Shown here piece by piece: positions 1 through 64,000 of a DNA stretch of 64,000 bases; within the stretch, counting starts at the first letter, position 1; each line of letters opens with the position of its first letter. The translations under genes and the position numbers were made by a program. Origin of the DNA: Candidatus Shapirobacteria bacterium. GTDB lineage: Bacteria; Patescibacteriota; Microgenomatia; UBA12405. The stretch spans positions 71,296 through 135,295 of the forward strand of contig JBAZYN010000003.1 in the NCBI GenBank assembly GCA_041659325.1. Reading direction: 5' to 3'. The notes beneath the pieces are model-generated. The model did no database searches, was not told where the DNA came from, and saw nothing but the letters and a program-made list of their open reading frames with translations.

Positions 1-110
1 CTACGTTCAGGGTAAACTGGCTCAGGGTCGCAATGACCCTCCTACGCTACCGACTTTGCCAAGGCTACGGAGGGCAAGGCGTAATGACGTTGGGGGGGGA
101 AAAAAAGGTG
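1..110. repeat. Mosaic intergenic repeat block (modules ...ctcagggtcgcaatgac..., ccgac-ttg-gccaagg, ggctacggagggcaagg)
   Basis: Near-identical to blocks at 7300-7390 and 59940-60050; contains the cgcaatgacg motif that recurs more than 14 times in the window. Confidence 0.7.
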
Positions 111-121
111 GTAGGACGGGG

Positions 122-580
122 TTATTTTAGTTCCTGATAGAGGGCGTCTAAAAAAGCAATTTTGGGGAGATCTTTTATCTGTTCGATTGTCACCCACTTG
201 TAATCATCGTGTTCTTCGGGATTTAATTTGATTATCCCGCTTTTATACCGGCAAGAATAAACCAATTGGAACTGATGGCGTTCGGGGTTTGATAGGTGAT
301 CGAAGCAGAAAATTATTTTTTCGATATCTACCTCTAAATTAACTTCTTCCCTGATTTCCCTACTTAGGGCATTGACAGCCCTTTCATCAAAATCTATGGA
401 CCCGCCGGGAATATCCCAAACGTTTGACATATAGTCGTTTATAGGTGAGCGGTGGGTGATTAAAAATTTGCCGTCTTTTTTTATAAGACCATGGGCAGCG
501 ACTTTGAAATATGGCATGGGTAATTTTAACAGTTTTGTTATAATATCGGGTGTTATAAGGTTTAAAAAATATGAGTCCAT
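122..580 (-). CDS. NUDIX hydrolase
   Basis: Nudix box GGSIDFDERAVNALSREIREEVNL (GX5EX7REUXEEXGU). Confidence 0.8.
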   Translation of the reverse strand: MDSYFLNLITPDIITKLLKLPMPYFKVAAHGLIKKDGKFLITHRSPINDYMSNVWDIPGGSIDFDERAVNALSREIREEVNLEVDIEKIIFCFDHLSNPERHQFQLVYSCRYKSGIIKLNPEEHDDYKWVTIEQIKDLPKIAFLDALYQELK

Positions 581-912
581 TTAAAATAGAAATTGGGGGT
601 GAACCCGGGGGTGAAGAGGTTGATTTACAGGTGGGTGAAGAGGAATCCACACAAAAAGTCCCGTGCGAATTTCAGGTTAGGGGAGGCCAGGGCTTTGTGG
701 CGGCTGGAGCTGATTGGTTTGCGGGCGGCAATGGCAGAGAAGGAAAATATTCTGCCCTTTTAGTTGCTTGTCCCGTGGATTCCATGAAAAGGTTGGTGGT
801 AGGAAAAAACGAGTCTGATACCGCAGAAATGGAGTGGCAGAGATCCACTGGTCCAGTTTTGATACGAGTGACTTTAAGCCGAATTTTACAAGTGGTCGAA
901 AAAGGGCGGTAA
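571..912 (+). CDS. hypothetical protein
   Basis: 113-aa ORF, Gly/Glu-rich N-terminus, no recognisable motif; could be spurious. Confidence 0.25.
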   Translation: MSPFKIEIGGEPGGEEVDLQVGEEESTQKVPCEFQVRGGQGFVAAGADWFAGGNGREGKYSALLVACPVDSMKRLVVGKNESDTAEMEWQRSTGPVLIRVTLSRILQVVEKGR

Positions 913-933
913 AAATCTAGAAACGGCTAAATT

Positions 934-1707
934 TTATTGTGTTACACGAACGGTTTTGGAGGGAACCGGGAGTGAAGTCATCTCGGGCAAATTGGCTTTG
1001 ATGATCTCTTTGATTTCGTCTTTGGTGACAAAACCATCGGCACAATAAGTTTGGTTTTCGATGACCTTTTGGAAAACTTCACAGTTTAGACCCATACCGT
1101 ATTGGTTACCCCCGCCCTGAGCGAGACCGGTCTGAACTTTTGGAACTCCGGAGGGCATTTGGAAGCCGGTGGGCATCTGAAAGCCGGAAGGAAGAGGGAT
1201 AGCTTTGTTGCCAAGCATCATGCCCATACCAAGAATTCCCTGGCCTAGTTCGTCATCTTCACAAATAAAACCATAGAACTTTTGGGCGGTTTCACAAGGG
1301 ATGCCTTTGGCAAGATCCTGACCGGATTCGCCCATCATTTGTCTGGTGCCGCCGTCGGAGGTGTCGGTGGTACCCCAACCCCAGGCTTTGGTGCCACTTG
1401 GCATTGGCATAACTTTTGGAGTTTCAGAGTTTTGTCTTTTCACGGTGGTGACTGAAGAACTACCGACGGGTAATTGTTTTAGAATATTTTGCCAACTGAT
1501 GCCTAACACCTGGGAATTTTGGGTGGTCAGCCAGAGCTGAGCTCCCTGAAATAAGGCGAGAGCAAATAAAGAAAATGCGCCGAGGGCGATATAAAGACGA
1601 TTGCTGTTTGGGTTCATATTAATAATATAATGGGCCAAATTTTGAGGGTTGTCAAGAATGAGAGTGACCGAGAATGCCGGAGGAGCAGAAAAATTACTTG
1701 AATTCAA
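934..1707 (-). CDS. hypothetical secreted/membrane-anchored protein
   Basis: N-terminal TM/signal segment (LYIALGAFSLFALALF), Gly/Met-rich repeats GFQMPTGFQMPSG; overlaps the next ORF by 14 nt (operon). Confidence 0.5.
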   Translation of the reverse strand: MNSSNFSAPPAFSVTLILDNPQNLAHYIINMNPNSNRLYIALGAFSLFALALFQGAQLWLTTQNSQVLGISWQNILKQLPVGSSSVTTVKRQNSETPKVMPMPSGTKAWGWGTTDTSDGGTRQMMGESGQDLAKGIPCETAQKFYGFICEDDELGQGILGMGMMLGNKAIPLPSGFQMPTGFQMPSGVPKVQTGLAQGGGNQYGMGLNCEVFQKVIENQTYCADGFVTKDEIKEIIKANLPEMTSLPVPSKTVRVTQ

Positions 1708-2212: not shown

Positions 2213-2239
2213 TTTTAAAAAGGTGACTTGCTGATGTGA

Positions 2240-3325: not shown

Positions 3326-3357
3326 CGGTGTATTGTATATGAAATTATTGAGTAAAT

Positions 3358-5151: not shown

Positions 5152-5169
5152 TGAGTAATTGTAGCATTC

Positions 5170-5325
5170 AAACCCTAACCCTACCCTTTCCCTTGACAGG
5201 GCAAGGGATAATTGAAATCAAAACATCCCCCTGCCTGCCGGCAGGCAGGGATTGCCACGTCGTTCCACTCCTTCCGCCAAAGGCGGAGAAGCGCAATGAC
5301 GGGTAAGAAGCAATGACGGAAGGGG
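5170..5325. repeat. Mosaic palindromic repeat block (cccttgacagggcaaggg; ccctgcctgccggcaggcaggg; gattgccac-hairpin-cgcaatgacgg)
   Basis: Perfect palindromes; the same modules recur at 10370, 23942, 37862, 34590, 37880 and 61985. Confidence 0.8.
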
Positions 5326-5726: not shown

Positions 5727-5821
5727 GTATTGGTATGATACAAAAAGATGGTGGTAAAAGCAAGAAAGGGACCGAAGGTGGGGAGAGACAAATAATTTTG
5801 TAATCAGTAATCGGTAAGAAA

Positions 5822-5932
5822 GGTTTAGCCGAATTCGAGAATGAGTCCGTGCAATCCAAATCCCTCTTTAATTCTCCCTTTGACAAGGGAGAACATTGAT
5901 TATTGCCAGGGGAGGGTTTAGCCGAATTCGAG
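5822..5932. repeat. 75-bp insert carrying module aaatccctctttaattctccctttgacaagggagaac, flanked by 18-bp direct repeats ggtttagccgaattcgag (5822-5839 and 5915-5932)
   Basis: The second DR copy is the last 4 codons plus stop (LEFG*) of the permease gene. The first copy is an orphan duplicate distal to the insert. Confidence 0.8.
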
Positions 5933-7000: not shown

Positions 7001-7400
7001 TGGTTAAGTATAGAGTCTAAAAGTCTTAAAGTCGAAAGTCTAAAGTTTAAAGCCAGCATAAACAAATTAATAATTAACAATTAACAGATTTGTATCTGTA
7101 ATCGGTAATCAGTAATTGGTAATTAGTAATCTGTAAACTGTAATTAGCCTTAGCTGTAAGCGAGTGCACTAAATCCCTCTTAAAATTTCAATTTGTCCCG
7201 CCCGTCGGACAGGCAGGAGCAATCTTAAAACAACTCTACTATTTCAATCCTGTAAGGATTGCTTCGTCGCCTGAAAGGCTTCTCGCAATGACGGGGGCGG
7301 AAGATTGCCACTCCTTCCCTTCAACTATGTTCAGGGCAAGCCCTTCGACAAGCTCAGGATAAACTAGCTCAGGGTCGCAATGACGGGGAAAAGGGAAATT
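7001..7400. repeat. Composite intergenic repeat region (9-mer tandem gtctNaaag units, GTAATN hexamer array, palindromic modules)
   Basis: atagagtctaaaagtcttaaagtcgaaagtctaaag (compare 61960-62080); gtaatcggtaatcagtaattggtaattagtaatctgtaa; block 7300-7390 matches 1-60 and 59940-60000. Confidence 0.8.
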
Positions 7401-7436
7401 AAGAATTTAAAAAAACAAAAAACCAGGAAAGCTCTA

Positions 7437-7560
7437 ATTTCCCTCGAAGCGGCGGTGGCGGCGGTTGAACTCGATGGCGGCGTCGACAATTTTTGAGGGA
7501 TTAAAATCGGGGAAATGATCTTTTTCAAAATAGAATTCGGCATAGGCGTAATTTATAAAA
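7437..7560 (-). pseudogene. Duplicated 3' fragment of uppS (last ~36 codons plus stop)
   Basis: ~108 bp (7441-7548) about 93% identical to 8300-8407; translates to ...YAYAEFYFEKDHFPDFNPSKIVDAAIEFNRRHRRFEGN*. Confidence 0.85.
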
Positions 7561-8290: not shown

Positions 8291-9019
8291 TTAATTTCCC
8301 CCGAAGCGGCGGTGGCGGCGGTTGAACTCGATGACAGCGTCAATGATTTTTGACGGATTGAAATCGGGGAAATGATCTTTTTCAAAATAGAATTCGGCAT
8401 AGGCGTTTTGCCAGGACATGAAGCCCGATAGGCGCTGTTCACCGGAGCTGCGGATAATAAGATCGGGATTGGGATAGGGCTGATTTTGCAGATTGAGATA
8501 TTTGTCGATCAACTGTTGATCGACTTTGTCCGGACTGATTTTGTCGGCGACAATGGCAGAAACAACGCGGGTAATTTCGTCTTTGCCGCCGTAATCGAGG
8601 CATATATTGAAAACATGATCGGTAAAGTGAGCGGTGTCGGCTTCGGCTTTGGCGATAGCTGAGGCCAAACTTTTGGGAATACGGTCTTTACGGCCACGGT
8701 GGATAATTTTTACTTTTTCTTTTTTGGCGGAGTCAATTTGTTTTTTGAGAAAAAGCTCGTAGAGCTTCATGAGATAGGCAATTTCTTCTGCTGACCGGTT
8801 CCAGTTTTCGGTGGAAAAACACCAGACGGAGACGGTGTGAACGCCGATTTCCCAACAAGCTTCGGTAACTTCAACAGCGGCATCAAAACCCTTTTTGTGG
8901 CCTTCGAGGGTATACATGCCCCTGGCTTTGGCCCAACGACGGTTACCATCGGGAATTATGGCGATATGGTGGGGAATTTCTGAATTTTCAGGCAAGGAAA
9001 GATTCCATTTTGATTTCAT
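8291..9019 (-). CDS. uppS: undecaprenyl diphosphate synthase (isoprenyl transferase)
   Basis: HIAIIPDGNRRWA motif; ...RRHRRFGGN C-terminus. Confidence 0.9.
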   Translation of the reverse strand: MKSKWNLSLPENSEIPHHIAIIPDGNRRWAKARGMYTLEGHKKGFDAAVEVTEACWEIGVHTVSVWCFSTENWNRSAEEIAYLMKLYELFLKKQIDSAKKEKVKIIHRGRKDRIPKSLASAIAKAEADTAHFTDHVFNICLDYGGKDEITRVVSAIVADKISPDKVDQQLIDKYLNLQNQPYPNPDLIIRSSGEQRLSGFMSWQNAYAEFYFEKDHFPDFNPSKIIDAVIEFNRRHRRFGGN

Positions 9020-10167: not shown

Positions 10168-10174
10168 TATGTGA

Positions 10175-10258
10175 TTATAACGAATTACGAATTAATAATT
10201 ACGAATTACGAATTATCAGGTAATCTGTAATTGGTAACCGGTAATCGGTAACCAGCTC
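10175..10258. repeat. GTAATN / AATTAC hexamer tandem array forming a long imperfect hairpin
   Basis: attacgaattaataattacgaattacgaatta...ggtaatctgtaattggtaaccggtaatcggtaacc. Confidence 0.75.
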
Positions 10259-10261
10259 AAT

Positions 10262-10421
10262 TAAATCCACCCCTATCCCCTCCTTTGAAGAAAGGAGGGG
10301 CACTACTCGTCATTGTGAATGAATAGAGGGAATGTGACGATCTCGTGTTTCTTGCCGTAAACCATGCCTGCCGGCAGGCAGGGATTGCCACTCCGCCAGT
10401 TGGCGGATCGCAATGACGGGG
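10262..10421. repeat. Rep135 composite element, copy 1 (carries an extra ccctgcctgccggcaggcaggg module)
   Basis: aaatccacccctatcccctcctttgaagaaaggaggggcactactc...gattgccactccgccagttggcggatcgcaatgacgg; other copies at 34454, 46075 and 49861, plus a partial at 30056. Confidence 0.85.
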
Positions 10422-13347: not shown

Positions 13348-13734
13348 CTAGGATTTTGGCCTTGAGTCGGAGAGACTTTGGGAATCAGGGTTTGTAATAT
13401 CTCGTGAAAAGACCTTAACTCTTCCCGAAATTAAACGGGCAATGCACTTGGATGGTTGTCCTTTTGTGTTTAAAAGGTAGAGATCGACTCTTTCTGGAGC
13501 TAACCGTGTGGCAGCGAAAGTGCCCGGGTGGTTCACTGCATACTGCTCGGCCATATTTGTCAGACCACTATTTGCAACCGAGCAAATTGTGCCGGGATCG
13601 GCGCCCCGATTGGCGATACCGCACATACCAATGTTAAACCCGCCTGGAATCCGATAACATGGATTCCCCGGATAAAAACAATAGGTATACAGTAATTGCA
13701 TTGGTGGAGTAACTTTTCTTTCTGGATCAGCCAT
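13348..13734 (-). CDS. Cys-rich small protein, paralog 1
   Basis: GMCGIANRGADPGTICSVANSGLTNMAEQY aligns to GLCGVSTPQDKGRTFCGRAENGLTTMANSY of the neighbouring ORF. Confidence 0.6.
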   Translation of the reverse strand: MADPERKVTPPMQLLYTYCFYPGNPCYRIPGGFNIGMCGIANRGADPGTICSVANSGLTNMAEQYAVNHPGTFAATRLAPERVDLYLLNTKGQPSKCIARLISGRVKVFSRDITNPDSQSLSDSRPKS

Positions 13735-13785: not shown

Positions 13786-14163
13786 TTACCGGGTGATTTC
13801 TGGTATCGGAATCTGTTCTTTATTGTTGATGACTCTGCCTGAACGCAGTGTGGCTAACGTAGTAACTCGGTCATGACCAGCGACGGTACAAAGATCGACT
13901 TCTGTATCGTTTACGACAAATGCCGCTACGGGGAGAAGACCTAAATCTTGTCTGTGTGCGGCAAGGTAACTATTGGCCATTGTCGTTAGGCCATTTTCTG
14001 CACGGCCACAGAATGTCCTGCCCTTATCTTGGGGTGTGGAAACACCACATAGACCAATATCTTTATCTCTAAGACAGGCTGTCAATTTAAAACAAGCAGG
14101 AGTTGCTAAAATAACCGTTTTAGTTTGGTCGCCCGTTTTTGCTTCTGGTGAACCATTGGGCAT
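13786..14163 (-). CDS. Cys-rich small protein, paralog 2 (start codon 18 nt after the recombinase stop)
   Basis: Paralogous to 13348-13734; co-transcribed with the recombinase. Confidence 0.6.
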   Translation of the reverse strand: MPNGSPEAKTGDQTKTVILATPACFKLTACLRDKDIGLCGVSTPQDKGRTFCGRAENGLTTMANSYLAAHRQDLGLLPVAAFVVNDTEVDLCTVAGHDRVTTLATLRSGRVINNKEQIPIPEITR

Positions 14164-14181: not shown

Positions 14182-15051
14182 TTATAATTCTTTTAATTTG
14201 ATGCCTTTGGATTCTTCTTTGGCTTCGATAAGCTCCATGTATTTTTCGGTGGTGGAAATGCGCTTGTGACCGACAATTTGGGAAACTACGTCGATGGGAA
14301 CGCCGGATTTTAATTGAAAAGCAATAAAAGTGTTTCGCAAGTCATTGACTTTGATACCCTTGATGTCGGCCTTGTTGAAATAGCGATTTAATAAACTTCT
14401 GATGTTACGGGCTAGAAGGTGACGGCCGGTTTTGGTAACAAAAACGCTTTTGGATTTGCTGTTGTAACGACCTTCATCGAGATATCTTTTTAGAGCTGAT
14501 TTGGCGGAATTGTTTAGAGGAACAGTGCGGACACTGTGACTTTCGTATGAGTCGATGATAATTTCATTGTCTTTGATGTTTTCCAACTTTAGATTTTCGA
14601 TTTCTTTGATCCTTAGACCGGCTTGAAGCATCAGCTCGACAATGGCGGTGGACCGGGCATCATTTCGGCAGGCGTCGCGCAGAGACCGGTATTCAATTGG
14701 TTTTAAAATTTTGGGGACATCATTTTCGTACTTGGGATGTTTTATTTCGGTGGAAGGATCGACAGAGATGAGGCCTTCATTTTTTAAAAAGGAAAAGAAA
14801 TTTTTGATGGAGTTTAGTTTTCGACTGACTGACTTGGCGGTATAGCCGTTTTTCATTAAATCTTTTTTGAAGTTGTCAATATCGGTGCCACGAACGGCAT
14901 CAACTCCGGTGATTTTTGACTGGGCCTTTAAAAAGTGGATCAGCTGATTAATATCACCTTTGTAGGCTACAATGGTGTTTGTGGACTTACCTTTTGTTAA
15001 AAGAGATTTGGTAAAAAGATCCAAGGTGGATTCAAGGGATAGATCGGGCAT
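14182..15051 (-). CDS. tyrosine site-specific recombinase, XerC/XerD-like
   Basis: C-terminal catalytic signature HSVRTVPL...LRNTFIAFQLKSGVPIDVVSQIVGHKRISTTEKYMEL (R..HxxR..Y); 289 aa. Confidence 0.85.
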   Translation of the reverse strand: MPDLSLESTLDLFTKSLLTKGKSTNTIVAYKGDINQLIHFLKAQSKITGVDAVRGTDIDNFKKDLMKNGYTAKSVSRKLNSIKNFFSFLKNEGLISVDPSTEIKHPKYENDVPKILKPIEYRSLRDACRNDARSTAIVELMLQAGLRIKEIENLKLENIKDNEIIIDSYESHSVRTVPLNNSAKSALKRYLDEGRYNSKSKSVFVTKTGRHLLARNIRSLLNRYFNKADIKGIKVNDLRNTFIAFQLKSGVPIDVVSQIVGHKRISTTEKYMELIEAKEESKGIKLKEL

Positions 15052-15472: not shown

Positions 15473-15542
15473 TGCGGGGTAGTGTACGGCTGCACGTGAG
15501 GCTCATAATCTCACAGGCCGGGTTCAACTCCCGGCCCCGCAA
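15473..15542 (+). tRNA. tRNA-Met (CAU), initiator-like
   Basis: tgcgggg...ggctcataatctcac...ggttcaactcccggccccgca; closely resembles E. coli tRNAfMet (CGCGGGG...GGGCTCATAACCC...GGTTCAAATCCGGCCCCCGCAACCA); CCA not encoded. Confidence 0.75.
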
Positions 15543-15610
15543 CATTTCACTTGGTAATCGGTAACCAGTAATTGGTAATTGGTAATAAGAAAATGTATCG
15601 GTTTTACTTG

Positions 15611-15639
15611 TTGACAGAAGCGAAAGGCGAAGTTAGAAT
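15611..15639 (+). promoter_or_regulatory. Sigma-70-type promoter (TTGACA, 17 nt, TAGAAT)
   Basis: ttgaca at 15611-15616, 17-nt spacer, tagaat at 15634-15639. Confidence 0.5.
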
Positions 15640-15645
15640 GACTAG

Positions 15646-15716
15646 CGATCTTGGAAACGAGATTTTGCACCCAAATTTTGAAATAGAAAGGTCCTCATTA
15701 ACCTGAGGACTTTTTT
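15646..15716 (+). ncRNA. Candidate small RNA (~70 nt) bounded by a consensus promoter and an intrinsic terminator
   Basis: Predicted TSS ~7 nt after the -10; ends with hairpin gtcctca-ttaacc-tgaggac followed by TTTTTT; no ORF. Confidence 0.35.
15689..15716 (+). terminator. Rho-independent terminator
   Basis: 7-bp GC-containing stem, 6-nt loop, T6 tract. Confidence 0.6.
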
Positions 15717-15719
15717 ATT

Positions 15720-16040
15720 GGAAAATCAAAACCCACTTTTAAATAAAACCCTAACCCTACCCTTTCCCCCACCAAAGGCGGGCAGGCTTGACAGGGCAAG
15801 GGGGAATAAAAATCCAAATCCCTCTTTAATTCTCCCTTTGACCCACCTGCCGGACGAGCTGGTCTTCCTTTGGCCCTCCTACGCCACCGACTTCGCCAAA
15901 GCTACGGCGGGCAAGCAAGGGAGAATTATAAAAATAAAAGAAACTCGATATATTTGGTATAATCACCCTAGTTTTTGGCTCGCCTACGGTAAACCTACGG
16001 CGGGCGAGGCCCTCCCCGTAAGGCTACGGAAGGGCTGGAA
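15720..16040. repeat. Mosaic repeat block upstream of the tRNAs
   Basis: Modules cccttgacagggcaaggg, aaatccctctttaattctccctttgac, cctacgccaccgacttcgccaaagctacggcgggcaag (compare 1-110); includes a TGgTATAAT extended -10 at 15955-15963. Confidence 0.75.
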
Positions 16041-16043
16041 TAT

Positions 16044-16117
16044 GGCAGGGTAGCTCAGCTGGTTAGAGCGTAGCATTCATAACGCTAAGGTCGCGGGTCC
16101 GAGCCCCGCCCCTGCTA
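16044..16117 (+). tRNA. tRNA(CAU), elongator Met or Ile2 (lysidine)
   Basis: ggcagggtagctcagctggttagagc-gtagcattcataacgcta-aggtc-gcgggtccgagccccgc-ccctgct-a; Ile-like backbone. Confidence 0.8.
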
Positions 16118-16202
16118 CAAACAAAACCCACCCGCCCTTCGACAAGCTCAGGGCACCCTCCCTTGAAAAAGGAGGGAAAAGAGGAAAGTTAAAAATTAAT
16201 TA

Positions 16203-16276
16203 GGGCATGTAGCTCAGTTGGTTAGAGCATCGATCTTATAAGTCGAGGGTCCATGGTCCGAGTCCATGCATGCCCA
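16203..16276 (+). tRNA. tRNA-Ile (UAU)
   Basis: gggcatgtagctcagttggttagagc-a-tcgat-cttataa-gtcga-gggtc-catgg-tccgagt-ccatg-catgccc-a; 7-nt anticodon loop cTTATAAa gives anticodon TAT. Confidence 0.65.
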
Positions 16277-16322
16277 CAGTGGGTGGAAAACCTAAATTAA
16301 TTTTTATTTATTTTTCCAAAAT

Positions 16323-17509: not shown

Positions 17510-18720
17510 CCAGGCAGATTGGGAGTTAGAATGCTTTTTGTTTTCGTCCTGTGCTTTTTGGGCCTGGACTCATCAGATCCGGAGAAACCGGATAAACACA
17601 CATCCGACCCACCTGGTGGCTATAAAAAACGCCACCAGGCAGGTCGGGGAACTCGATAGTGCTTGGCCCTCAGGGTCCGAAATTCACCCTAGAGGGCCTC
17701 GGACGCGTGGGCGTCGGTGCTACGGGGTGTAGCAGTGCGTCTGGGCCCAGAGGGTGTTCGACCTATCGACCAACTGGACATCCCAAGGGGGCTGTCGATT
17801 GTGACCGGGGGCGACGGTAAACTCGAACTCATTGTTCGACAACCATCGGTAGGAACACGGTTCCACACCCTCCCACAAAAGCAAGGCCCAATCCTCACCC
17901 GAGCTCCGCGGTAGCGGGGGCAAGTTGACCCGAATGCGGACGCTCCAGGGCACGTGGTGCCGGAAAGAGAAGACCACGCCGGGCCAACCCTCATGGTTGG
18001 GCCTGAATTCACGGGTCTCAACCTCCGTACCGCCGACGAACAAGGTCGCACTCGCGCTGCCCGGGCAGCCCTGGCATAGGACGCCAAGGAAGGAACGGCT
18101 GTTCCTTGGGGGCGGGGGGGGCGGTGGGGTGACCGGGGGGGTCAACGTGACCGGCGGGTTGGTCGGAGTGGCCGTGATCAGCGTCATCGGCGGGGTCGGG
18201 GTGGCCGAAGGGGTGGCCGAGGTCGTGGGCGTGTTGGTCGGGGTGGCCGAAGGGGTGGCCGTGGTCGTGGGGGTCGGCGACGGGGTGGCCGTGCGGGTCG
18301 GGGTACGGGTCGGCATGCAGTGGCGGATGTTCTCCTCCTGGATATTGATGGTGGAGGAATTCGCCACAATGCCATTCGGCCCTTCGAAGCGGATGCTGTA
18401 GACGCCCGGCTGCGCGATCCTCGTGAAGTGGGGGTCCTTCCCGGGTTTGGTGCAGCCTTCGCTGAGCGTGATCGACCGAGAGGAAACGACCTGGCCATCC
18501 CTAATGAGGGACAGAGTACCAGTGACCTTTTCGGTCGAGCATACACGGGCCCACATCGTCAGATCCTCGTAGCAGTCCCACCCTTCGGCGGGAATGGTGA
18601 CGACCGGCGTCTCGGCGGACACGACCGAAGAGTCCCGGAGGGATACTCCCACCAGGACGGCGAGGGCGATGATGCCCAAGAGCAACGCGGCGGACACGAT
18701 CTTTTTCCCGTTCATGAGAT
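17510..18720. other. High-GC (~60-65%) island in a ~42% GC background
   Basis: Abrupt composition shift immediately after the stop at 17507 and before 18720; the antisense strand is full of spurious long ORFs, as is typical for high-GC DNA. Confidence 0.8.
17720..18715 (-). CDS. secreted/membrane-anchored protein with a Pro-Thr-rich linker (high-GC, foreign-looking gene)
   Basis: Signal/TM MNGKKIVSAALLLGIIALAVLVGV; PT linker PTRTPTRTATPSPTPTTTATPSATPTNTPTTSATPSATPTPP...PPPPPPP; C-terminal Cys-containing domain. Confidence 0.7.
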   Translation of the reverse strand: MNGKKIVSAALLLGIIALAVLVGVSLRDSSVVSAETPVVTIPAEGWDCYEDLTMWARVCSTEKVTGTLSLIRDGQVVSSRSITLSEGCTKPGKDPHFTRIAQPGVYSIRFEGPNGIVANSSTINIQEENIRHCMPTRTPTRTATPSPTPTTTATPSATPTNTPTTSATPSATPTPPMTLITATPTNPPVTLTPPVTPPPPPPPRNSRSFLGVLCQGCPGSASATLFVGGTEVETREFRPNHEGWPGVVFSFRHHVPWSVRIRVNLPPLPRSSGEDWALLLWEGVEPCSYRWLSNNEFEFTVAPGHNRQPPWDVQLVDRSNTLWAQTHCYTP

Positions 18721-23914: not shown

Positions 23915-24060
23915 TAACATCTAAATCCCTCTAAATCTCCCCCTGCCTGCCGGCAGGCAGGCCTGCCCCCTCTTTGAAGAAAGAGGGGGAAATCAAACCC
24001 ACCCATTATCTCCATCCCTTGACTCTCCGAAAGCTTCGCATTCTGGCGGGTGAACAAGGG
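23915..24060. repeat. Mosaic repeat block (aaatccctctaaatctcc; ccctgcctgccggcaggcagg; ccccctctttgaagaaagaggggg)
   Basis: Perfect palindromes shared with 5238, 10370, 37862 and 61985. Confidence 0.8.
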
Positions 24061-25903: not shown

Positions 25904-25904
25904 A

Positions 25905-26000
25905 CCAAATCCCTCTTTAATTCTCCCTTTGACAAGGGAGAACACTACTCTTGTGCGTAAGAACGACTGAATGTAAGAGACGAATTTTCCGCTTGGGCAA
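25905..26000. repeat. Module aaatccctctttaattctccctttgacaagggagaac plus a tail
   Basis: Identical to the module at 5858-5897. Confidence 0.8.
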
Positions 26001-29783: not shown

Positions 29784-29784
29784 T

Positions 29785-33206: not shown

Positions 33207-33269
33207 AGAGACAGTAGGGACGGGATTGTGATAGACTGGGATTAATTATTAATTAATTTTAATTATAAT

Positions 33270-34690: not shown

Positions 34691-34691
34691 G

Positions 34692-36826: not shown

Positions 36827-36834
36827 GTTGGTAA

Positions 36835-36965
36835 TTGGTAACCTGTAATTGGTAACTGGTAATTAAGACAGTTAATTTTAACAGGCAGAATGGGGTTATT
36901 CTATGAGAAGATGGAGGACACTTGTAATCAGTAATCGGCAATCAGTAACCTGTAATTGGGAACTG
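36835..36965. repeat. GTAATN hexamer arrays (two blocks)
   Basis: ggtaattggtaacctgtaattggtaactggtaatt ... gtaatcagtaatcggcaatcagtaacctgtaattgggaactgggaatt. Confidence 0.75.
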
Positions 36966-36969
36966 GGAA

Positions 36970-37839: not shown

Positions 37840-37995
37840 AGATAGGAGGTATTTTAAATCTCCCCCTGCCTGCCGGCAGGTAGGGATTGCCACGTCGCTT
37901 CGCTCCTTCCGCCAAAGGCGGATAGGCGCAATGACGTGAGATGAAAGATTGCCACGTAATTTTACTCCTACCGCCAAAGGCGGATCAGCCCAGGG
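37840..37995. repeat. Palindromic module block (ccctgcctgccggcaggtaggg; two gattgccac-ccgccaaaggcgga-cgcaatgac units)
   Basis: Compare 5238-5300. Confidence 0.8.
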
Positions 37996-41611: not shown

Positions 41612-41720
41612 GTTTAAACCCTTACCCTTCCCTTTCCCTTGACAGGGCAAGGGAAAAATTCAAAAGAATATAACATAAGTAATAATATAATTACCAATTA
41701 CGAATTATCAATTAAATCAG
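41612..41720. repeat. Module cccttacccttccctttcccttgacagggcaagggaaaaa plus an AATTAC hexamer array
   Basis: Compare 5170-5200; the hexamer array is rendered as spurious N-terminal codons of the next ORF. Confidence 0.7.
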
Positions 41721-43744: not shown

Positions 43745-43840
43745 GTGTGAGCAATCCGGGCGAGGCGACTTGCCTGCCCGCGGTGGCGGGTAAATGGGCA
43801 GGCAGGGGTGCAACGAGGGCGAGCGAAAGGAAGAGCTTTA
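43745..43840. repeat. Repeat modules (ccgggcgaggcgacttgcctgcccgcggtggcgggtaaatgggcaggcagg)
   Basis: Compare 29950-30000 and 60000-60030 (gcgggtaaacgggcaggc). Confidence 0.65.
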
Positions 43841-44741: not shown

Positions 44742-45198
44742 AAAATTTTATATTGGTAAAGGCTTCAGGATGGCTGATTCTACCATAATTTACGATTTTT
44801 TATCAAAAGATTGGCATTAAATGTTAATTATGGGTAATTTTGGGACCAGTGGTTTTAAGATTGCCGCGGTCACTCCTTCCCTCGAAATGACGTGACTTAA
44901 GCGCAATGACCTATAAAGAGGTAAAAATTACCGAATCAATAGCGGTCGTCCCGTTATATTTCCACCATATCTTTTGCCATCTGCGGTATTTACATCATCG
45001 AAACAACTCGACCTTCTACGGCTTCCCCAGGATTGCCGAAAAACACGATTTGGTACATATTGCACAGTATCTCGCGCAAGCTGATTCTATTGGTTAGATG
45101 TAAAATAAGTGGAGTAAGCTGAAGTCGAATAACGATTTGGGCGGTGGCTTTTTAAAAAGTTTTAATTTTGCGATAACAATAATATTGGCAATTTTATT

Positions 45199-46074: not shown

Positions 46075-46213
46075 AAATCTACCCCTATCCCCTCCTTTGA
46101 AGAAAGGAGGGGCATTGCTCGTTGTCGCGATTGAATGGAGTGAGTGGGGTGATTTCATATTTCTTACCGTAAGGATTGCCACTCCCGACGTGAAGTCGGG
46201 ATCGCAATGACGG
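46075..46213. repeat. Rep135 copy 3 (inner hairpin swapped: cccgacgtgaagtcggg instead of ccgccagttggcgg)
   Basis: Same flanks; the different but still palindromic core argues that the structure is conserved. Confidence 0.85.
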
Positions 46214-46257: not shown

Positions 46258-46703
46258 GGAGATGTATTGCATTGACAGGGTGAGTACTTTAAAAAACCGC
46301 AAGCCGGCTTTGATCCATTGAGCCGTTAAACAGGGTCGAAAACAACATGCCAATAATATCGGCAAAGCTTTGAGAGAATCTTTGGCTTCGGTCGAAGGTA
46401 CCCTTTTGGGCAACGGAAACGGTTTCGTTTCTGCTGCTCCAGTTGCTTACGCTATTGCGTAAACAACAAGCCATTAATTAGTCCCCTATTCTAGGGGAGA
46501 TTAGTTAGTGCCAATTAAACTAGAATGCTGATCTGCCGATCTCGACTTTGGCAGAGAATAAGCGAGGGGTAATGCCCTCATCAATCGACATTTCACCGCC
46601 TTTTTTGGGTATTAGCTGGTGAAAGTGTAGGAGAAAACCCAATAAGCTTGTAGACGTTTTTTAATTTCCACTTTGGACCCCCGATCATTCCGGGGCATCT
46701 CCT
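46258..46703 (+). ncRNA. ssrA: tmRNA (ssrA)
   Basis: 5' GGAGAUG-UAUUGC-AUUGACAGGG (compare E. coli GGGGCUG-AUUCUG-GAUUCGACGGG); tag ORF ...GNGNGFVSAAPVAYAIA* ending with TAA at 46460-46462; 3' tRNA-like ggac-ccccg-atcattc-cgggg-catctcc pairs with the 5' end; putative promoter tggcaa-17-tataat (46220-46248); smpB is 1.7 kb away. Confidence 0.75.
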
Positions 46704-46912
46704 CTAAACAGAATCTGCGATCTTTTGTAACCTGTAATTGGTAATCAGTAATTGGTAAAAACCTAGAAGCAACATGAGATTAGAAAATCTATGTATGGGG
46801 TGTAAACATAATTGCTGTGACGGGTTTTTTGGGTGAAAGAATTTACTTTTCCACCGTCCAATTTTGTTAAGGTAGTGTGGAACGATAAGACAAAGCTGGA
46901 AACAACTTTTTT

Positions 46913-47424: not shown

Positions 47425-48339
47425 TTACTGCATTTCCTCGGAGATGGGCTTCACACAAACTAGACCTCCGGCGCAGGTGAGATTAACGGTTTGGTACTGA
47501 CCGGGATCCGGATTGTAGTTGGTGCAGAAAGCGCCATTGCCGGAACAAGTATAGGTGGGAGCCGGAGTGGAGGTGGGTCTAGTGGTGGGAACAGCGGTAG
47601 GAATAGGCCTGATACAAACCAGACCTGAGGCACAGGTAAGATTTAGGGTTTGATACTGACCGGGGTTTGGATTGTTGTTTGAGCAGAAAGCGCCATTGCC
47701 GGAACAAGTATAGGTGGGAGCCGGAGTGGAGGTGGGTCTAGTGGTGGGAACAGCGGGAGAAATAGGCCTTATGCAAACTTGATTATTGGCACAAGTTAGA
47801 TTAAGAGTCTGATAATTAGTGGAATCCGGATTGAAGTTGGTGCAGAAAGCGCCATTACCGGAACAAGTATAGGTGGGAGCGGAGGTGGGCCGGGTGGTGG
47901 GGACAGCGGGCGGAGTATCGCCACAAGCGGAACCACTACAGACACCGTTTTTGCAGGAAAGACCTGAACGACAACCAAACCAAGAAGTGCATCTTTGGCC
48001 GCAGCTACCACGAGAAGAATTGGTGGGATTTATTTTACAGATTATATCGGTATACCGATTGCGATAGGTGGAATCTTGGTGACAGGGGGAACTAGCGTCC
48101 CGACCGGAAGTGTAGCTATATGTCTGAGAGGGAGAACCTGAACAATTTGTATTGCTAGCATTATAAACAGAAACACGGCAGCTGTATTGAAGAGCGGCCT
48201 GATTTTCGACAACACGGCGTTGACCGATATAGCGTATCCCGGCGAAGAGACCGAGAGCGGTGACAACTAAACCAGTGAGGACAGCAACCTGGGCAAGGCC
48301 GGATTGCATTTTTTTTGTGGAAAAAGCGTTTATAACCAT
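47425..48339 (-). CDS. secreted Cys-rich protein with three ~46-aa tandem repeats
   Basis: TM/signal; 3x (AVPTTRPTSTPAPTYTCSGNGAFCTN.NPDPGQYQTLNLTCA.GLVCIRPI); ~138-bp nucleotide tandem repeats. Confidence 0.75.
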   Translation of the reverse strand: MVINAFSTKKMQSGLAQVAVLTGLVVTALGLFAGIRYIGQRRVVENQAALQYSCRVSVYNASNTNCSGSPSQTYSYTSGRDASSPCHQDSTYRNRYTDIICKINPTNSSRGSCGQRCTSWFGCRSGLSCKNGVCSGSACGDTPPAVPTTRPTSAPTYTCSGNGAFCTNFNPDSTNYQTLNLTCANNQVCIRPISPAVPTTRPTSTPAPTYTCSGNGAFCSNNNPNPGQYQTLNLTCASGLVCIRPIPTAVPTTRPTSTPAPTYTCSGNGAFCTNYNPDPGQYQTVNLTCAGGLVCVKPISEEMQ

Positions 48340-48441: not shown

Positions 48442-48858
48442 CTAAATATTGGCCTCTTGCTTCTCGCTTATGGCTTTGAGTTTTGCTTTTTTTTCGTATT
48501 TTTTGACTTTGCGGCCGACCCCGATTTCGACTTTGAACCAATGGCCTTTGAGGAAAATGGCGATGGGAATGAGCATGTATTTTTGATTGCGGTAGCTTTG
48601 TAGTTTGGCAATTTCTTTTTCGGATAAAAGAAGCGAGCGGTCGTGAGTGGTGTCGACAACCTGGCCCTGGGAAAATTTGTAAAGCGGGATTTGAAGGTTG
48701 ATCAAAACCGGCTGACCATTTTTGATTTCGACTTTTGAGCTGGCAAACTGGACGGTTTGGGTGCGCAGCGACTTGACGTCGGAGCCGGTGAGAACCAGGC
48801 CCGCTTCAAATTTTTCGACAAACTTGTAGTCGAGTGAATCGCGATTAAAATGACGCAT
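48442..48858 (-). CDS. smpB: SsrA-binding protein SmpB
   Basis: MRHF...KFEAGLVLTGSDVKSLR... Confidence 0.9.
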   Translation of the reverse strand: MRHFNRDSLDYKFVEKFEAGLVLTGSDVKSLRTQTVQFASSKVEIKNGQPVLINLQIPLYKFSQGQVVDTTHDRSLLLSEKEIAKLQSYRNQKYMLIPIAIFLKGHWFKVEIGVGRKVKKYEKKAKLKAISEKQEANI

Positions 48859-48904: not shown

Positions 48905-49140
48905 TACTAAAACCTAGCCTTCTCTCCTTAACCCTACTTAGCTTAGGGTACGGATAGACGAGAGAAAGAGGGGAAACAATGCACGCCAAATCCCTCTAAA
49001 TCTCCCTTTGACAAGGGAGACTTCAAAACCCCACACCCTTTCGGGAGCTCCCCTTGACCCTCCTATCGGCGGGCAGGCAAGGGAGCAAAATCTTCCCCTA
49101 TCCCCTCCTTTGAAGAAAGGAGGGGGCTTCTCTTCAGATA
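48905..49140. repeat. Mosaic repeat block
   Basis: aaatccctctaaatctccctttgacaagggagacttcaaaacccc... (compare 29890-29960); cccctatcccctcctttgaagaaaggaggggg. Confidence 0.8.
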
Positions 49141-49860: not shown

Positions 49861-49994
49861 AAATCTACCCCCATCCCCTCCTTTGAGGAAAGGAGGGGCA
49901 ATGCTCATCATCGTAACTGAATAGAGAGAATGAGGTGATCTCGTGTTTCTTGCCGTAAAGATTGACACTCCGCCAGTTGGCGGATCGCAATGAC
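49861..49994. repeat. Rep135 copy 4
   Basis: aaatctacccccatcccctcctttgaggaaaggaggggcaatgctcatcatcgtaactgaatagag...ccgccagttggcggatcgcaatgac. Confidence 0.85.
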
Positions 49995-58799: not shown

Positions 58800-58860
58800 A
58801 AAGATTGCCACGTCGTCCTGATTAACATCGAGGACTCCTCGCAATGACGGGTTAGAGAGA
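58800..58860. repeat. gattgccac-hairpin-cgcaatgacgg module
   Basis: aagattgccacgtcgtcctgattaacatcgaggactcctcgcaatgacggg. Confidence 0.75.
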
Positions 58861-59924: not shown

Positions 59925-60050
59925 CAAGTAAAAGATTGCCACCCTTCGACATGCTCAGGGCAAGTCCTTCGACTGGCTCAGGATAAACTAGCTCGGAACT
60001 CCCACCACAGGCCCTCCAAAGGCGGGTAAACGGGCAGGCGCCATGACGGG
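59925..60050. repeat. Mosaic repeat block
   Basis: ...cccttcgacatgctcagggcaagtccttcgactggctcaggataaactagctc... (compare 7320-7380 and 1-40). Confidence 0.8.
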
Positions 60051-61949: not shown

Positions 61950-61954
61950 TATTC

Positions 61955-62080
61955 TAGTATAGAGTCTAAAAGTCTCAAAGTCTAAAAGCCATGCCTGCCG
62001 GCAGGCAGGTCTGAAAGTTTCAAAGTCGAAAAGTCGAAAGTCTCAAAGTTTCAAAGTCTAAAAGTTAAAAGACTGAAAAT
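61955..62080. repeat. 9-bp tandem (gtctNaaag) array interrupted by ccatgcctgccggcaggcagg
   Basis: agagtctaaaagtctcaaagtctaaaag...gtctgaaagtttcaaagtcgaaaagtcgaaagtctcaaagtttcaaagtctaaaagttaaaag. Confidence 0.85.
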
Positions 62081-62296
62081 TTAAAGAAAAACGATGGCGA
62101 GGATTATGAGGAGGATGGAAAAAAGCAGATGTAAGTAGGAAAAAGCAATTAAAATGGCATTGAATTTATCATAAACATTGCTAGACATGGAAGTGACCTG
62201 CTTGACAATAACAATAGAGAAAATGAAATATAAAATAGTGCCCAGAATAGCGAATAATTTTCCGGCTAAAAGCATGAGGGTATTGATTTGTAACAC
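62081..62296 (-). CDS. small two-TM membrane protein
   Basis: 71-aa hydrophobic ORF. Confidence 0.4.
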   Translation of the reverse strand: MLQINTLMLLAGKLFAILGTILYFIFSIVIVKQVTSMSSNVYDKFNAILIAFSYLHLLFSILLIILAIVFL

Positions 62297-63156
62297 TATT
62301 TTATCCTCCCTTCGAGGGTTTCCTGCTCTTCTTCCCCTCTCATTTGCTGCAAGACTTTTATGACCAAACCTGGGTTGGGAACTAGCTCGACTCTAATAAC
62401 CGGAATTTCTGAGGCGGTTTGGATAAGAACGGTACCGTAGTTAAAAATGGTTTGGCTGACACCACCCTGAGTGGAGGTAACATCCTGAATCATGGATATT
62501 TTGGCTTCGGAAAATTTCTTGCTCAACATGTTGTAAAAATCAATATCGATTACCCTTTCTTCGGTGATAATAAAAACGTTGAAATACCAGGAGAGAAAAC
62601 TTTCAAAGGCGATAGCGAAAGTGACTAAGTACCAAAAAAGAACAAAAACGGTCTGGTACCGGCCCGGGAAAAAACTAAGTAAGGGGATAAAAGACAGGAG
62701 AAATGGGGCTAATAACATAAAGAGGCAGATGATGATCCATTTAACGTTGGTAAACCAGTGACGGCGTAAAACAAGAATTATTTCCTCTTCGTCGTCGCGG
62801 GTATCGAAAGTAAACACTTTGGGGCGAGCCAGAAAGGAAGAGAGGGGGCTAGTAGTTTTCCCCTGGATTAATTCATATATTTTTTGGCGGAATTTCATGT
62901 TGGCGGATTTATCGGATTCCGAGGATGGTGGCGGTGAATTACGTGTGGGTGGTGGTGTTTGGGACTGCGGAGGATGGATCGGAGCTGAAGCGGAAGGGAC
63001 AATTTTGGGTTTCTTTTTTTTGGGAGACTCGGAGGGCTTTAGGATAGTAGTAGTAGTGGTTGGTGGAGGGCTGACGGGAGATGGGTCCGACTTCGCTGAA
63101 GCTTCGACGGATAAATCATCGGGGGCGATTGCATCTAAATCTTTTGCGCGTGGCAT
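62296..63156 (-). CDS. bacterial PH-domain (bPH_2/YdbT-like) membrane protein with a Pro/Ser-rich N-terminus
   Basis: ...EIILVLRRHWFTNVKWIIICLFMLLAPFLL... Confidence 0.55.
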   Translation of the reverse strand: MPRAKDLDAIAPDDLSVEASAKSDPSPVSPPPTTTTTILKPSESPKKKKPKIVPSASAPIHPPQSQTPPPTRNSPPPSSESDKSANMKFRQKIYELIQGKTTSPLSSFLARPKVFTFDTRDDEEEIILVLRRHWFTNVKWIIICLFMLLAPFLLSFIPLLSFFPGRYQTVFVLFWYLVTFAIAFESFLSWYFNVFIITEERVIDIDFYNMLSKKFSEAKISMIQDVTSTQGGVSQTIFNYGTVLIQTASEIPVIRVELVPNPGLVIKVLQQMRGEEEQETLEGRIK

Positions 63157-63227
63157 GAGTTATTGTAACATTTTGAAGACTGGCTAATTAAATTATACTA
63201 AGTTGTCGAAATTTAATAGGTGATTGG

Positions 63228-63983
63228 CTAAAAGGTGACACGGTGGGGAAGACCCCAGTCGTCTTTGATATAACGCTCCCTTGGTGTGGCATAAACTGCC
63301 GCGGCCCTTTCAGGCCAGGTATTGGCACATCTGACTGTAATACCGGTTAGACTGGTAAGTAGGGCAGCGTGACCCGGATGACCATCCGCCTTCAGGCGAT
63401 CGGCTCTTTGCTTCTGTTGACTTTCCCAGTCATCGGTAGCTTTGCCTACTACGGCAAGCATTCTGTCTAGGGCCCATCTATCTTGATCCCTGGCTTGCGA
63501 TTCATCAAAAAACGAGTGGGGGTATTTTCCGTGGTGGTAATGATGCGCCCAGGCGGTCACAACATCCCTGCGGAAATTGCTTCCGCTTGAGGCGGACTGA
63601 GTGGCGGCTTCCATAAATTCGTTTGTCGGCCCGTGAGAAGTTAGTGCCCCAACACAGGCGGCAAACTCGGAGACAACTGTGTTGTATAGTGGTTTTAAAT
63701 GTTGGGCGTTAAGAGGAAAGGACAGTCCAGCCACTGAGCATTTAGGGAGAACCGGCGCTAAGGGGCTTAGTTGGACCGGATTTACTACCCCATTGGCCGT
63801 TACTGTGGGGGTTATGGCAATTTGTATATCCATAATCGCTACGACAGGATTTTGCCGGGCGGCTAATTGTTGAGATAATTCTAAGGGAGAAAGACCCCCA
63901 AAAGGAAACATCAATACTTGGGGGGCTTTGGCTGAACTAACCTTAACTAGGGTACCAATGTCAATCGACATAAATTGAAGCAT
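63228..63983 (-). CDS. hypothetical protein (GC-elevated; may extend past the window end)
   Basis: 251-aa ORF, His-rich patch AWAHHYHHGKYPH. Confidence 0.45.
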   Translation of the reverse strand: MLQFMSIDIGTLVKVSSAKAPQVLMFPFGGLSPLELSQQLAARQNPVVAIMDIQIAITPTVTANGVVNPVQLSPLAPVLPKCSVAGLSFPLNAQHLKPLYNTVVSEFAACVGALTSHGPTNEFMEAATQSASSGSNFRRDVVTAWAHHYHHGKYPHSFFDESQARDQDRWALDRMLAVVGKATDDWESQQKQRADRLKADGHPGHAALLTSLTGITVRCANTWPERAAAVYATPRERYIKDDWGLPHRVTF

Positions 63984-64000
63984 AGAAGGAGGTAGCGCCT

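Follow-up and report, generated by a model that had tools for sequence, protein, structure and literature searches.

Strand-locked and nested REP-like palindromic modules in spacers and essential genes of a Candidatus Shapirobacteria bacterium

The stretch of DNA analyzed here, referred to as the window, comprises 64,000 nt of contig JBAZYN010000003.1 of a Candidatus Shapirobacteria bacterium. It has a GC content of about 44% and a GC skew which is positive throughout (0.03-0.37 per 2-kb bin). Its genes lie on both strands and include dnaG, rpoD, leuS, a sua5-tsaE fusion, tsaD, vanW and smpB as well as genes encoding NUDIX and GNAT proteins. The only recombinase encoded in the window is a Xer-like tyrosine recombinase/integrase (14182-15051). 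Between the genes, and inside three of them, short GC-rich hairpin modules of several families were found, which resemble repetitive extragenic palindromes (REPs), are inserted into each other and point in one direction on the chromosome. For comparison, a sister set of 38 loci with 60-77% amino-acid identity was collected by a metagenome scan with TsaD; all of these loci show a positive skew and a conserved gene order. The original prediction had placed the sequence in a streamlined, small-genome organism. This, and an uncultured lineage as well, is plausible, since the sister loci come from metagenomes and their gene orders are compact and syntenic, and it is in line with the origin of the window from a metagenome-assembled genome and with the Sua5-TsaE fusion. 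The TsaD protein encoded here is 100% identical to the NCBI entry MFA5828758.1.

Five module families had been named from the sequence alone. All five recur far above chance, and none of them had a single match in dinucleotide shuffles. M1 (CCCTGCCTGCCGGCAGGCAGG) occupies five sites in the window, M2 (CCCCTCCTTTGANGAAAGGAGGGG) six sites plus one variant and M4 (CCCTTGACAGGGCAAGGG) three sites, and M3 (TCCCTTTGACAAGGGAGA) is present in six exact copies. M5 (GATTGCCAC-X-CGCAATGACGG) has four exact copies and 11 copies by a relaxed pattern, which includes GATTGCTTC/GATTGCCGC variants; degenerate M5 copies and copies with long inserts beyond this pattern were added to the feature list by direct reading of the sequence. 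A repeat survey combined with direct reading yielded two additional families, M6 (CCCTCCTACGC...CTACGGAGGG) and M7 (CCCTTCGACAAGCTCAGGG). Furthermore, a genome-specific composite unit of about 135 nt occurs in five copies. Altogether the modules cover about 3.2 kb, which is about 5% of the window. Perfect hairpins with a stem of at least 7 bp are enriched about fourfold in the intergenic DNA (24 versus 5.5 ± 1.9 expected).

The statement that most intergenic spacers are occupied holds for those of at least 140 nt, 21 of 27 of which contain modules, but applies to only 23 of the 46 spacers of at least 40 nt. Likewise, the arrays said to link the modules are present, but their periods are 7 and 8 nt according to Tandem Repeats Finder, not 6 and 9 nt. 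The period-7 unit is GGTAATC or similar, with a reverse type ACGAATT, and the period-8 unit is AGTCTGAA. The sites are as follows (window coordinates, strand, content).

1-95 (+), 3′ part of an M5 unit with nested M7 content, truncated by the window start
38-74 (+), M6 inserted after CGCAATGA in the M5 unit 1-95, followed by a second CGTAATGACG
5167-5207 (+), M4 with leader, AAACCCTAACCCTACCCTTTCCCTTGACAGGGCAAGGG
5221-5249 (+), M1 palindrome CCTGCCTGCCGGCAGGCAGG with C-rich leader
5250-5320 (+), M5 (GATTGCCAC...CGCAATGACGG) with inner CCGCCAAAGGCGG hairpin and doubled 3′ flank GCAATGACGG
5796-5817 (+), heptamer array (GTAATNG)
5855-5892 (+), M3 with leader, AAATCCCTCTTTAATTCTCCCTTTGACAAGGGAGA
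7006-7052 (+), array of AAGTCTA/AGTCTNAA units, period 7-8
7094-7146 (+), heptamer array
7258-7296 (+), M5 variant GATTGCTTCGTCGCCTGAAAGGCTTCTCGCAATGACGG
7303-7386 (+), M5 whose X part is a nested M7 (CCCTTCGACAAGCTCAGGATAAAC...)
10174-10261 (no strand assigned), reverse-type (ACGAATT) and then forward (GGTAATC) heptamer array, an AT-rich inverted arrangement
10263-10419 (+), composite unit of M2, 60-nt core, 21-nt M1 insertion (10362-10382) and M5
15550-15592 (+), heptamer array directly 3′ of tRNA-Met
15743-15925 (+), inter-tRNA cluster, M4 leader with nested hairpin, then M3 leader with nested M6
16127-16175 (+), M7 and hairpin CCCTCCCTTGAAAAAGGAGGG between tRNA-Met and tRNA-Ile
21938-21981 (+), M3 of 44 nt inside the LeuRS gene (− strand), in-frame reading ISLVKGRSGEAERDL
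23923-23990 (+), M1 with leader, then M2-like hairpin CCCCCTCTTTGAAGAAAGAGGGGG
25423-25460 (+), M2 in the TsaE part of the Sua5-TsaE open reading frame (ORF), in frame
25590-25695 (+), octamer array (AGTCTGAA ×10) in the Sua5-TsaE ORF, in frame
25903-25941 (+), M3 with leader
28827-28870 (+), M3 of 44 nt inside the TsaD gene, in-frame reading KSLSASPLLPLTRE
29776-30145 (+), large cluster: heptamers, M6 nested in a CCCTCCCTTGA hairpin, M3, nested M1-type hairpin, M2 with M6 in its loop, composite core, minimal M5
34373-34720 (+), large cluster: M5-like unit, nested M1-type hairpin, composite unit (M2, core, M5), second M5, nested M6 overlapping the vanW 3′ end
36828-36972 (+), two heptamer arrays (36828-36865 and 36920-36972)
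37853-37995 (+), M1, M5 and degenerate M5; at most 68 nt in the same spacer of sister genomes
41613-41655 (+), M4 with leader
43766-43810 (+), nested M1-type hairpin CCTGCCCGCGGTGGCGGGTAAATGGGCAGGCAGGGG
44859-44912 (+), M5 variant (GATTGCCGC...) with doubled 3′ flank
46075-46213 (+), composite unit (M2, core, M5 with CCCGAC/GTCGGG inner stem) just upstream of the transfer-messenger RNA (tmRNA) gene
46723-46768 (+), heptamer array just 3′ of the tmRNA gene
48918-49125 (+), cluster of M6-like unit, M3, nested M1-type hairpin and M2
49861-49994 (+), composite unit (M2, core, M5)
58803-58850 (+), M5 with inner hairpin GTCCTGATTAACATCGAGGAC
59934-60050 (+), M5 with 97 nt of nested content (two M7 and an M1-type hairpin)
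61955-62087 (+), octamer array split by a 21-nt M1 unit (61989-62009)

The units are about 20-60 nt in size and consist of a GC-rich hairpin, which either follows a short C-rich leader (AAATCCC...) or is clamped by flanks, as in M5. M2, M3 and M4 share a common grammar, in which an A-rich start with a C-rich leader (AAATCCCTCT, AAATCTACCCCTA, AAACCCTAACCCTA) is followed by a C/T-rich arm, a loop starting with TTGA and a complementary G/A-rich arm. M1 is a near-perfect palindrome of 21 nt, and in M5 the conserved flanks GATTGCCAC-G and CT-CGCAATGACGG enclose the variable X. A literature search with the module strings and the module-encoded peptides returned primer coincidences only.

The 3′ flank of M5, GCAATGACGG, often occurs twice, with the copies 7-14 nt apart or split by an inserted M6 (5292-5320, 30134-30160, 44883-44912, and 29-95; also in L008, L087 and unrelated bacteria). 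The doubled flank looks like a footprint or a partial tandem unit.

All 43 asymmetric modules (M3, M4, M5, M6, M7, the CCCTTGAC hosts and nested M1) have the + orientation, and none has the − orientation. This applies to spacers of the −|−, −|+, +|− and +|+ types as well as to the inside of genes on both strands. The + strand is the G-rich and presumably the leading strand. In unrelated genomes, the orientation of M5 follows the local GC skew (68:41, p = 0.012) and has no relation to the coding strand (54:55). The same tendency was found for M5 in viral contigs (34:18) and, in contigs elsewhere, for M7 (79:34) and M3 (23:2). In the sister loci, too, the modules almost always share one orientation (11:1 for M2, 9:0 for M4, and 4:0 for M3).

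The modules are also inserted into each other. In M2-, M3- and M4-type hosts, M6 and other CCC...GGG hairpins immediately follow the TTGA of the loop (29829, 30003, and 15866 in the window; also in the sister loci L126 and L144). The X part of M5 is filled by M7 and M1-type hairpins at 7303-7386 and 59934-60050, and at the window start an M6 splits the M5 flank after CGCAATGA. In the alignment of the five composite units, the 21-nt M1 is present in one copy only and an M6 sits in the M2 loop of another, and the identical 21-mer also interrupts the octamer array at 61989. The paralogous copies thus reveal insertion of modules into modules, and the loop positions fit insertion into extruded or fork-exposed hairpins. 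The composite unit itself has unlike ends (AAATCTACCCC... and ...CGCAATGACGG) without duplication. Its 60-nt core was considered as a non-coding RNA, but it was found in this organism only and has a weak consensus structure beyond the M2 hairpin; it is treated as a genome-specific repeat scaffold.

The modules are not purely intergenic, as six copies are located in frame at four positions in the three genes encoding LeuRS, TsaD and TsaE. In LeuRS, TsaD and both TsaE sites, the ORFs are intact, Pfam domains are kept on either side of the inserts, and orthologues free of inserts exist. The 44-nt M3 in leuS, a gene on the minus strand, is 100% identical to that in tsaD, a gene on the plus strand. 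In leuS the modules are + oriented in every lineage.

The insertion site in TsaD lies between ALKRAK and KIEDIDVIGVT, the uninterrupted form being ...ALKRAK-(I/V/T)KIEDIDVIGVT. In about half of 33 sister loci this hot spot is empty. The others carry different fillings, all in frame: M3 as in the window, M5 plus M3 (L123/L153), M2 (L125, L132, L134, L141), M4-type or nested forms (L126, L144) and short arrays. Among the best 120 TsaD clusters of the protein database, 24 are empty at this position, and most of the filled ones have module-like peptides, e.g., KSLSASPLLPLTRE, TPNPSFEERRG, NPSVLRTSPLEKGR, and QNPPLTPPLRKGGE. The two TsaE sites and one LeuRS site follow the same pattern of empty and differently filled positions across relatives. 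The window and L123/L153 have a 43-nt M3 without any difference, whereas the flanking coding DNA aligns at only about 43-50% (65/150 and 75/150 for L123), values which may understate the true identity, because the global alignment was crude and the left flank was placed with a guessed 40-nt offset. Spacers differ in the same way: the ZIP-SBP spacer has 316 nt compared to a maximum of 68 nt in sisters (n = 12), and the RNaseH-ZIP spacer 143 nt compared to a sister median of 37 nt. Modules have therefore been gained, lost or replaced at orthologous and paralogous sites, and a local duplication is excluded by this.

The relatives with low GC content (31-36%; L127, L133, L124, and TsaD clusters such as P0013, P0064, and P0085) are without the GC-rich modules. 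At the TsaD hot spot they encode peptides from AT-rich repeats (SQISDVRSQK, KFLISNFQFLKNKEEK), which suggests a parallel set of AT-rich modules.

The suggestion of a system, instead of a feature of this locus only, was borne out by matches in sister genomes, many phyla, plasmids and viral contigs. The exact M5 flanks enclosing an X of 8-38 nt were found at at least 120 loci of the genome collection, compared to a chance expectation of about 34 from our own arithmetic over the whole 596-Gb collection. Of 210 copies, 182 have an X that begins with G, 179 an X ending with CT and 160 an X with a hairpin, so that the copies are homologous units and not chance matches. The matches listed include Dehalococcoidia, Treponema, Clostridia, Alpha-, Beta- and Gammaproteobacteria, Bacteroidota, Elusimicrobia, Coriobacteriia, Atribacteria, several groups of the candidate phyla radiation (CPR), cultured isolates and Micavibrio. 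M5 also lies in unannotated intergenic DNA of megaplasmids from isolates, with 35 places in one replicon of Novosphingobium resinovorum (NZ_CP017076.1), and in 57 viral contigs. M7 was found at more than 120 viral loci and on proteobacterial plasmids, M3 at 27 and M1 at 35 viral loci, and the viral M3 copies keep the grammar of the window (AATCCCTCC, variable inner hairpin, CCCTCCCTTTGACAAGGGAGG). No M2 was found in viral contigs and no M2, M3, M4 or M6 in plasmids, so that a spread across phyla is not demonstrable for all modules.

The viral contig IMGVR_UViG_3300022552_000049 (L204) carries six M5 copies in total, and at 690-842 four M5 units lie in tandem with a period of 41 nt.

The mosaic, combinatorial character that had been likened to REPs and bacterial interspersed mosaic elements (BIMEs) was confirmed, and M5 bears the tag of a known REP superfamily (PMC3733652). 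Read on the other strand, M5 is CCGTC-ATTGC...GCAAT-C, and the reverse complement of CGCAATGACGG is CCGTCATTGCG, with a CGTC tag next to the stem. The tag is present in all exact M5 copies of the window and in the 210 matches elsewhere, where it was part of the search pattern. The stem consists of a 5-bp clamp (ATTGC/GCAAT) starting with A/T pairs, a conserved internal loop and a variable inner hairpin of 8-97 nt. Most inner loops have 3 nt (95/160), and 54 of these 95 are C[TNC]G triloops. On the complementary strand these read C[GNA]G, GNA being a hyperstable DNA mini-hairpin (PMC13037366, PMC3201870). An RNA hairpin under selection would be expected to have RNA tetraloops, which these are not. 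Of the 210 copies elsewhere, 74 have a CCA-type tail (CTG, ATG or GTG upstream), whereas the window copies have AAA, AAG or AGG upstream. Among 137 copies elsewhere, 42 are accompanied by an inverted copy with the tags outside (head-to-head) and 14 by one with the tags inside; in the window no M5 copy is inverted, and only singles and tandem pairs occur.

The CGTC-tagged REPs have stems of 8-9 bp with A/T first pairs, loops of 4-5 nt and a 3-bp tail that is mostly CCA; they are predominantly head-to-head dimers, lie mostly downstream of ORFs in five phyla with intragenic copies, and have no dedicated transposase (PMC3733652). The superfamily takes in dRS3 of Neisseria as well as RPE-4 and RPE-6 of Rickettsia (Di Nocera, De Gregorio & Rocco 2013; PMC3733652). 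M5 shares with them the CGTC tag, the A/T first pairs, intragenic copies (TsaD of L123/L153), occurrence in several phyla and the lack of an associated transposase in 120 M5 loci and in the window; Micavibrio, a published host of CGTC-1, is among the M5 matches. Outside the window, the CCA-type tails of part of the copies, the excess of head-to-head dimers and the placement at gene 3′ ends also resemble these REPs. In contrast to these REPs, M5 has a 5-bp clamp with an internal loop and an inner hairpin able to hold other modules, lacks CCA tails and inverted dimers in the window, where it has a single orientation, and has a wider range (Chloroflexota, Bacillota, Elusimicrobiota, Patescibacteria, Actinomycetota, Atribacterota, others and viral contigs). 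As stem, loop, tail and partner depart from the published definition, M5 is termed a putative variant of the CGTC-tagged REPs and, by that definition, is probably not a member of CGTC-1 to CGTC-4. No M5-like string occurs in the supplements of that publication. The other modules are untagged REP-like stem-loops.

Other repeat systems share single traits with the modules. The REPs and BIMEs of Escherichia coli and the REP doublets forming hairpins (REPINs; PMC3116915) are also short GC-rich extragenic palindromes in mosaics and are regarded as non-autonomous mobile DNA. Unlike them, M1-M5 and M7 are without the GTAG tag, and the modules are oriented by chromosome strand, have frequent in-frame intragenic copies and, in the window, come with neither inverted doublets nor a REP-associated tyrosine transposase (RAYT). 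M6 holds CTAC/GTAG-like tetranucleotides, which do not lie at the stem foot. The Rickettsia palindromic elements (RPE) are in-frame palindromic repeats in genes (cited in PMC1779305, PMC10969869, PMC3733652). As with the modules, these in-frame palindromes lie in essential genes of a small genome, tRNA-modification and tRNA-synthetase genes being among the targets, and are translated as extra peptide loops; however, RPE-1 has 100-150 bp compared to the 20-60 nt seen here, and the modules nest and fill the same gene position differently by lineage.

The original prediction had also pointed to Correia-type elements of Neisseria, i.e., miniature inverted-repeat transposable elements, and this resemblance could not be upheld. 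Correia elements have 100-155 bp, 26-bp terminal inverted repeats, a TA duplication and a site for integration host factor. Correia/NEMIS elements are likewise abundant intergenic repeats in a small genome, but the modules lack that size, the terminal repeats, the duplication and the factor site. The small dispersed repeats (SDR) of Nostoc, which Elhai et al. reportedly described in 2008 (Genome Res 18:1484; cited in PMC3116915 and PMC3733652), are said to be hairpins of 21-27 nt that are nested in each other and in larger repeats and vary in presence between relatives. On this description, they share with the modules small size, nesting and presence or absence without a known enzyme, and they differ in their cyanobacterial host; to our knowledge, neither a strand lock nor in-frame gene hot spots have been reported for them. 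M5 was also compared with integron attC sites, CRISPR, group II introns and DnaA boxes, and its sequence does not appear to fit any of these. G-quadruplex or anticodon-loop look-alikes are coincidences without support, and a polarity like that of Chi or the FtsK-orienting polar sequences (KOPS) was rejected for the G-rich arms, as the palindrome carries the same arm on both strands.

Insertion into spacers, into other modules and in frame into essential genes, always in one direction along the chromosome, argues for tiny insertional DNA rather than for gene-expression signals, and the single orientation irrespective of gene direction argues that insertion or retention is coupled to replication. 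The modules are therefore probably, though far from certainly, very small non-autonomous insertional hairpins of the REP kind, whose insertion or retention depends on replication. A coupling to replication and a mechanism acting on single-stranded DNA are suggested by the strand lock and by the tracking of GC skew elsewhere. New units would insert at three kinds of site. The first would be spacers. The second would be loops or flanks of resident units in single-stranded form (after TTGA, or after GCAATGA in M5), and insertion there would build up the mosaics. The third would be loops of essential genes that tolerate an insert, as the C/T-rich and G/A-rich sequence is free of stops and would be translated. 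The simplest route may be a hairpin on single-stranded DNA at the replication fork, following the logic of IS200/IS605 and of REPs with RAYTs, or template switching.

Several findings weigh against this interpretation. No transposase or other mobilizing enzyme apart from the Xer-like integrase was found in the window; neither clean target-site duplications nor sharply defined ends were found at the modules, and in genes the insertion points are blurred by divergence. The sister loci have the same synteny and skew as the window and are therefore not independent tests of orientation, and the M3 count in contigs elsewhere (23:2) is inflated by related phages with identical flanks. Only one replichore is represented in the window, so that the flip expected at origin or terminus is not seen directly. 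The hot spots could result from one old insertion followed by turnover instead of repeated insertion. Finally, M5 in other bacteria is rare in divergent spacers (8/77), its right-hand neighbor converges in 55 versus 29 cases, and it prefers gene 3′ ends, which fits a role at the RNA level there.

This placement is one ground for regarding the modules as transcribed RNA elements kept by selection on expression, i.e., terminators, hairpins which stabilize mRNA at its 3′ end, hairpins which sequester a Shine-Dalgarno sequence (SD), or promoters. Such tuning of neighboring genes has often been proposed for REPs. REPs are mostly found downstream of ORFs (PMC3733652), the loops of M3 and M4 carry TTGACA, and the M2 arm CCTCCTTT pairs with an SD-like arm, AAAGGAGG. 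A terminator function with a preference for convergent genes had also been proposed for testing, and it was not supported by the window: the spacers with modules comprise 5 of the 9 divergent, 4 of the 7 convergent, 7 of the 12 −|− and 6 of the 17 +|+ ones, with the modules all in one orientation regardless of the genes, and no T-tract follows the stems. Between 23 and 42 kb of the window, terminator-like sites are at chance level (27 versus 21.9 ± 5.3 expected), and no site with a terminator- or sigma-70-like consensus coincides with a module. The TTGACA loops were rejected as −35 boxes, as a matching −10 and a promoter-scan match are lacking. Even at E ≤ 1, Rfam 15 matched only the three tRNAs and the tmRNA of the window and no module. 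With copies inside essential ORFs on both strands and low-GC sister genomes that do not carry these modules at the same loci, the RNA explanation is improbable. Hardly better placed, and in our view unlikely, is a set of single-stranded DNA motifs selected by the host for replication or segregation, such as single-strand initiation (ssi) priming sites, mini-hairpins excluding single-stranded DNA-binding protein, gyrase sites or polarity signals, whose orientation would be kept by their function. The strict co-orientation with the G-rich strand and its relation to skew in unrelated contigs would agree with it, as would the triloop complement GNA, a mini-hairpin known from the primase/ssi sites of phage G4 and RSF1010 (PMC13037366). 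However, close relatives differ greatly in their load, many orthologous spacers and sites in genes being empty, and uneven distribution was argued to rule out a general chromosomal function (PMC3733652). The sequence families are many and unrelated, M5 elsewhere often forms inverted doublets without polarity, and selection can hardly be imagined for modules inserted in coding loops.

A narrower form of the favored interpretation would be ordinary REPs or REPINs mobilized in trans by a RAYT or a Y1 transposase of the IS200/IS605 type encoded elsewhere. It is possible but rather doubtful. A strand bias is known from single-stranded transposition of IS608 and ISDra2 and speaks for it, as do the REP-like hairpins with a conserved tag beside the stem and the head-to-head doublets of M5 in other bacteria, as in REPINs (PMC3116915). 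On the other hand, neither a RAYT nor another Y1 transposase is encoded within the window, no recurrent protein family lies beside M5 in 120 loci, RAYTs are linked to GTAG-tagged and not to CGTC-tagged REPs (PMC3733652), and most modules carry neither tag and form no inverted doublets in the window. That local duplication or faulty assembly produced a pattern limited to this stretch, for which only the high local density would speak, is refuted almost beyond doubt, as copies are spread over all 64 kb and the same modules occur in independent sister assemblies, in the Logan assembly L001 of the same organism and in many phyla, plasmids and viral contigs.

REPs arranged in mosaics were known before, as were CGTC-tagged REPs from several phyla and palindromes inserted in frame. 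New are a dense system of many families in a small genome of the candidate-phylum type, the absolute strand lock without inverted dimers, the explicit nesting of module in module and the much wider range of M5, M7, M3 and M1, which includes viruses. New as well are the hot spots in genes: among well over a hundred relatives that were sampled, the loops of the essential genes tsaD, tsaE and leuS are either empty or hold different modules. Few parts of bacterial genomes are as poorly understood as REP-like repeats, and this locus, with many families on one strand and visible nesting, is an unusually clean natural experiment. If the orientation flips with the replichore, the spread of REPs would be tied to the replication fork, which would explain the origin of spacer DNA and new protein loops in small genomes. 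Beyond the interpretation favored here, a general process without any transposase is conceivable but not likely, in which replication or repair enzymes of the host would copy tiny hairpins into hairpin loops, spacers and permissive codons that are single-stranded at the fork, with the copies locked to the replichore and the words M1, M3, M5, and M7 carried across phyla by phages. If so, REP-like repeats would be a by-product or a parasite of the replication machinery and would continually supply essential proteins of small genomes with new peptide loops.

In practical terms, the repeats yield spurious ORFs and odd insertions in annotated proteins, and they break metagenome assemblies. The Logan contig L001 (4392 nt), the only other assembly recovered for this organism, spans exactly an island at 30242-34319 between tsaD and vanW, and both of its ends break in module clusters. 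The island contains a DUF4153 gene and two ORFs without a Pfam match and lies between the two largest clusters of modules. Several sister genomes have tsaD and vanW nearly side by side, with a median gap of about 400 nt.

Modules also lie next to RNA genes. The tmRNA gene (46258-46706, + strand, 449 nt; RF00023, 63.5 bits, E = 1.9e-22) was seen only with permissive Rfam filters and was missed by the gathering-threshold run and by ARAGORN. A composite unit is located just 5′ and a heptamer array just 3′ of it, and smpB (48442-48858, − strand) is close by. The tRNA cluster at 15473-16277 (+ strand) encodes Met(CAT), Met(CAT) and Ile(TAT), with module-filled spacers of 500 and 84 nt. A tRNA-Ile with a UAU anticodon is unusual among bacteria.

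Finally, further repeats and paralogs were observed in the window. Two paralogous small ORFs without a Pfam match (13348-13734 and 13786-14163, − strand) adjoin the Xer-like recombinase gene. At 47444-47920, within the ORF 47425-48339 (− strand), three tandem 159-nt repeats with 69-87% identity to the first copy encode a Cys- and Thr/Pro-rich repeated domain of a probably secreted protein. The regions 17720-18715 (− strand) and 18100-18310 have a local GC content of about 53% and G-rich tandem repeats of 12-42 nt, which encode a Pro/Thr-rich protein. A direct duplication of 115 nt with 93% identity (7435-7549 and 8292-8406) represents the 3′ end of a uppS-like gene (8291-9019), which was copied to the spacer downstream of the next gene.

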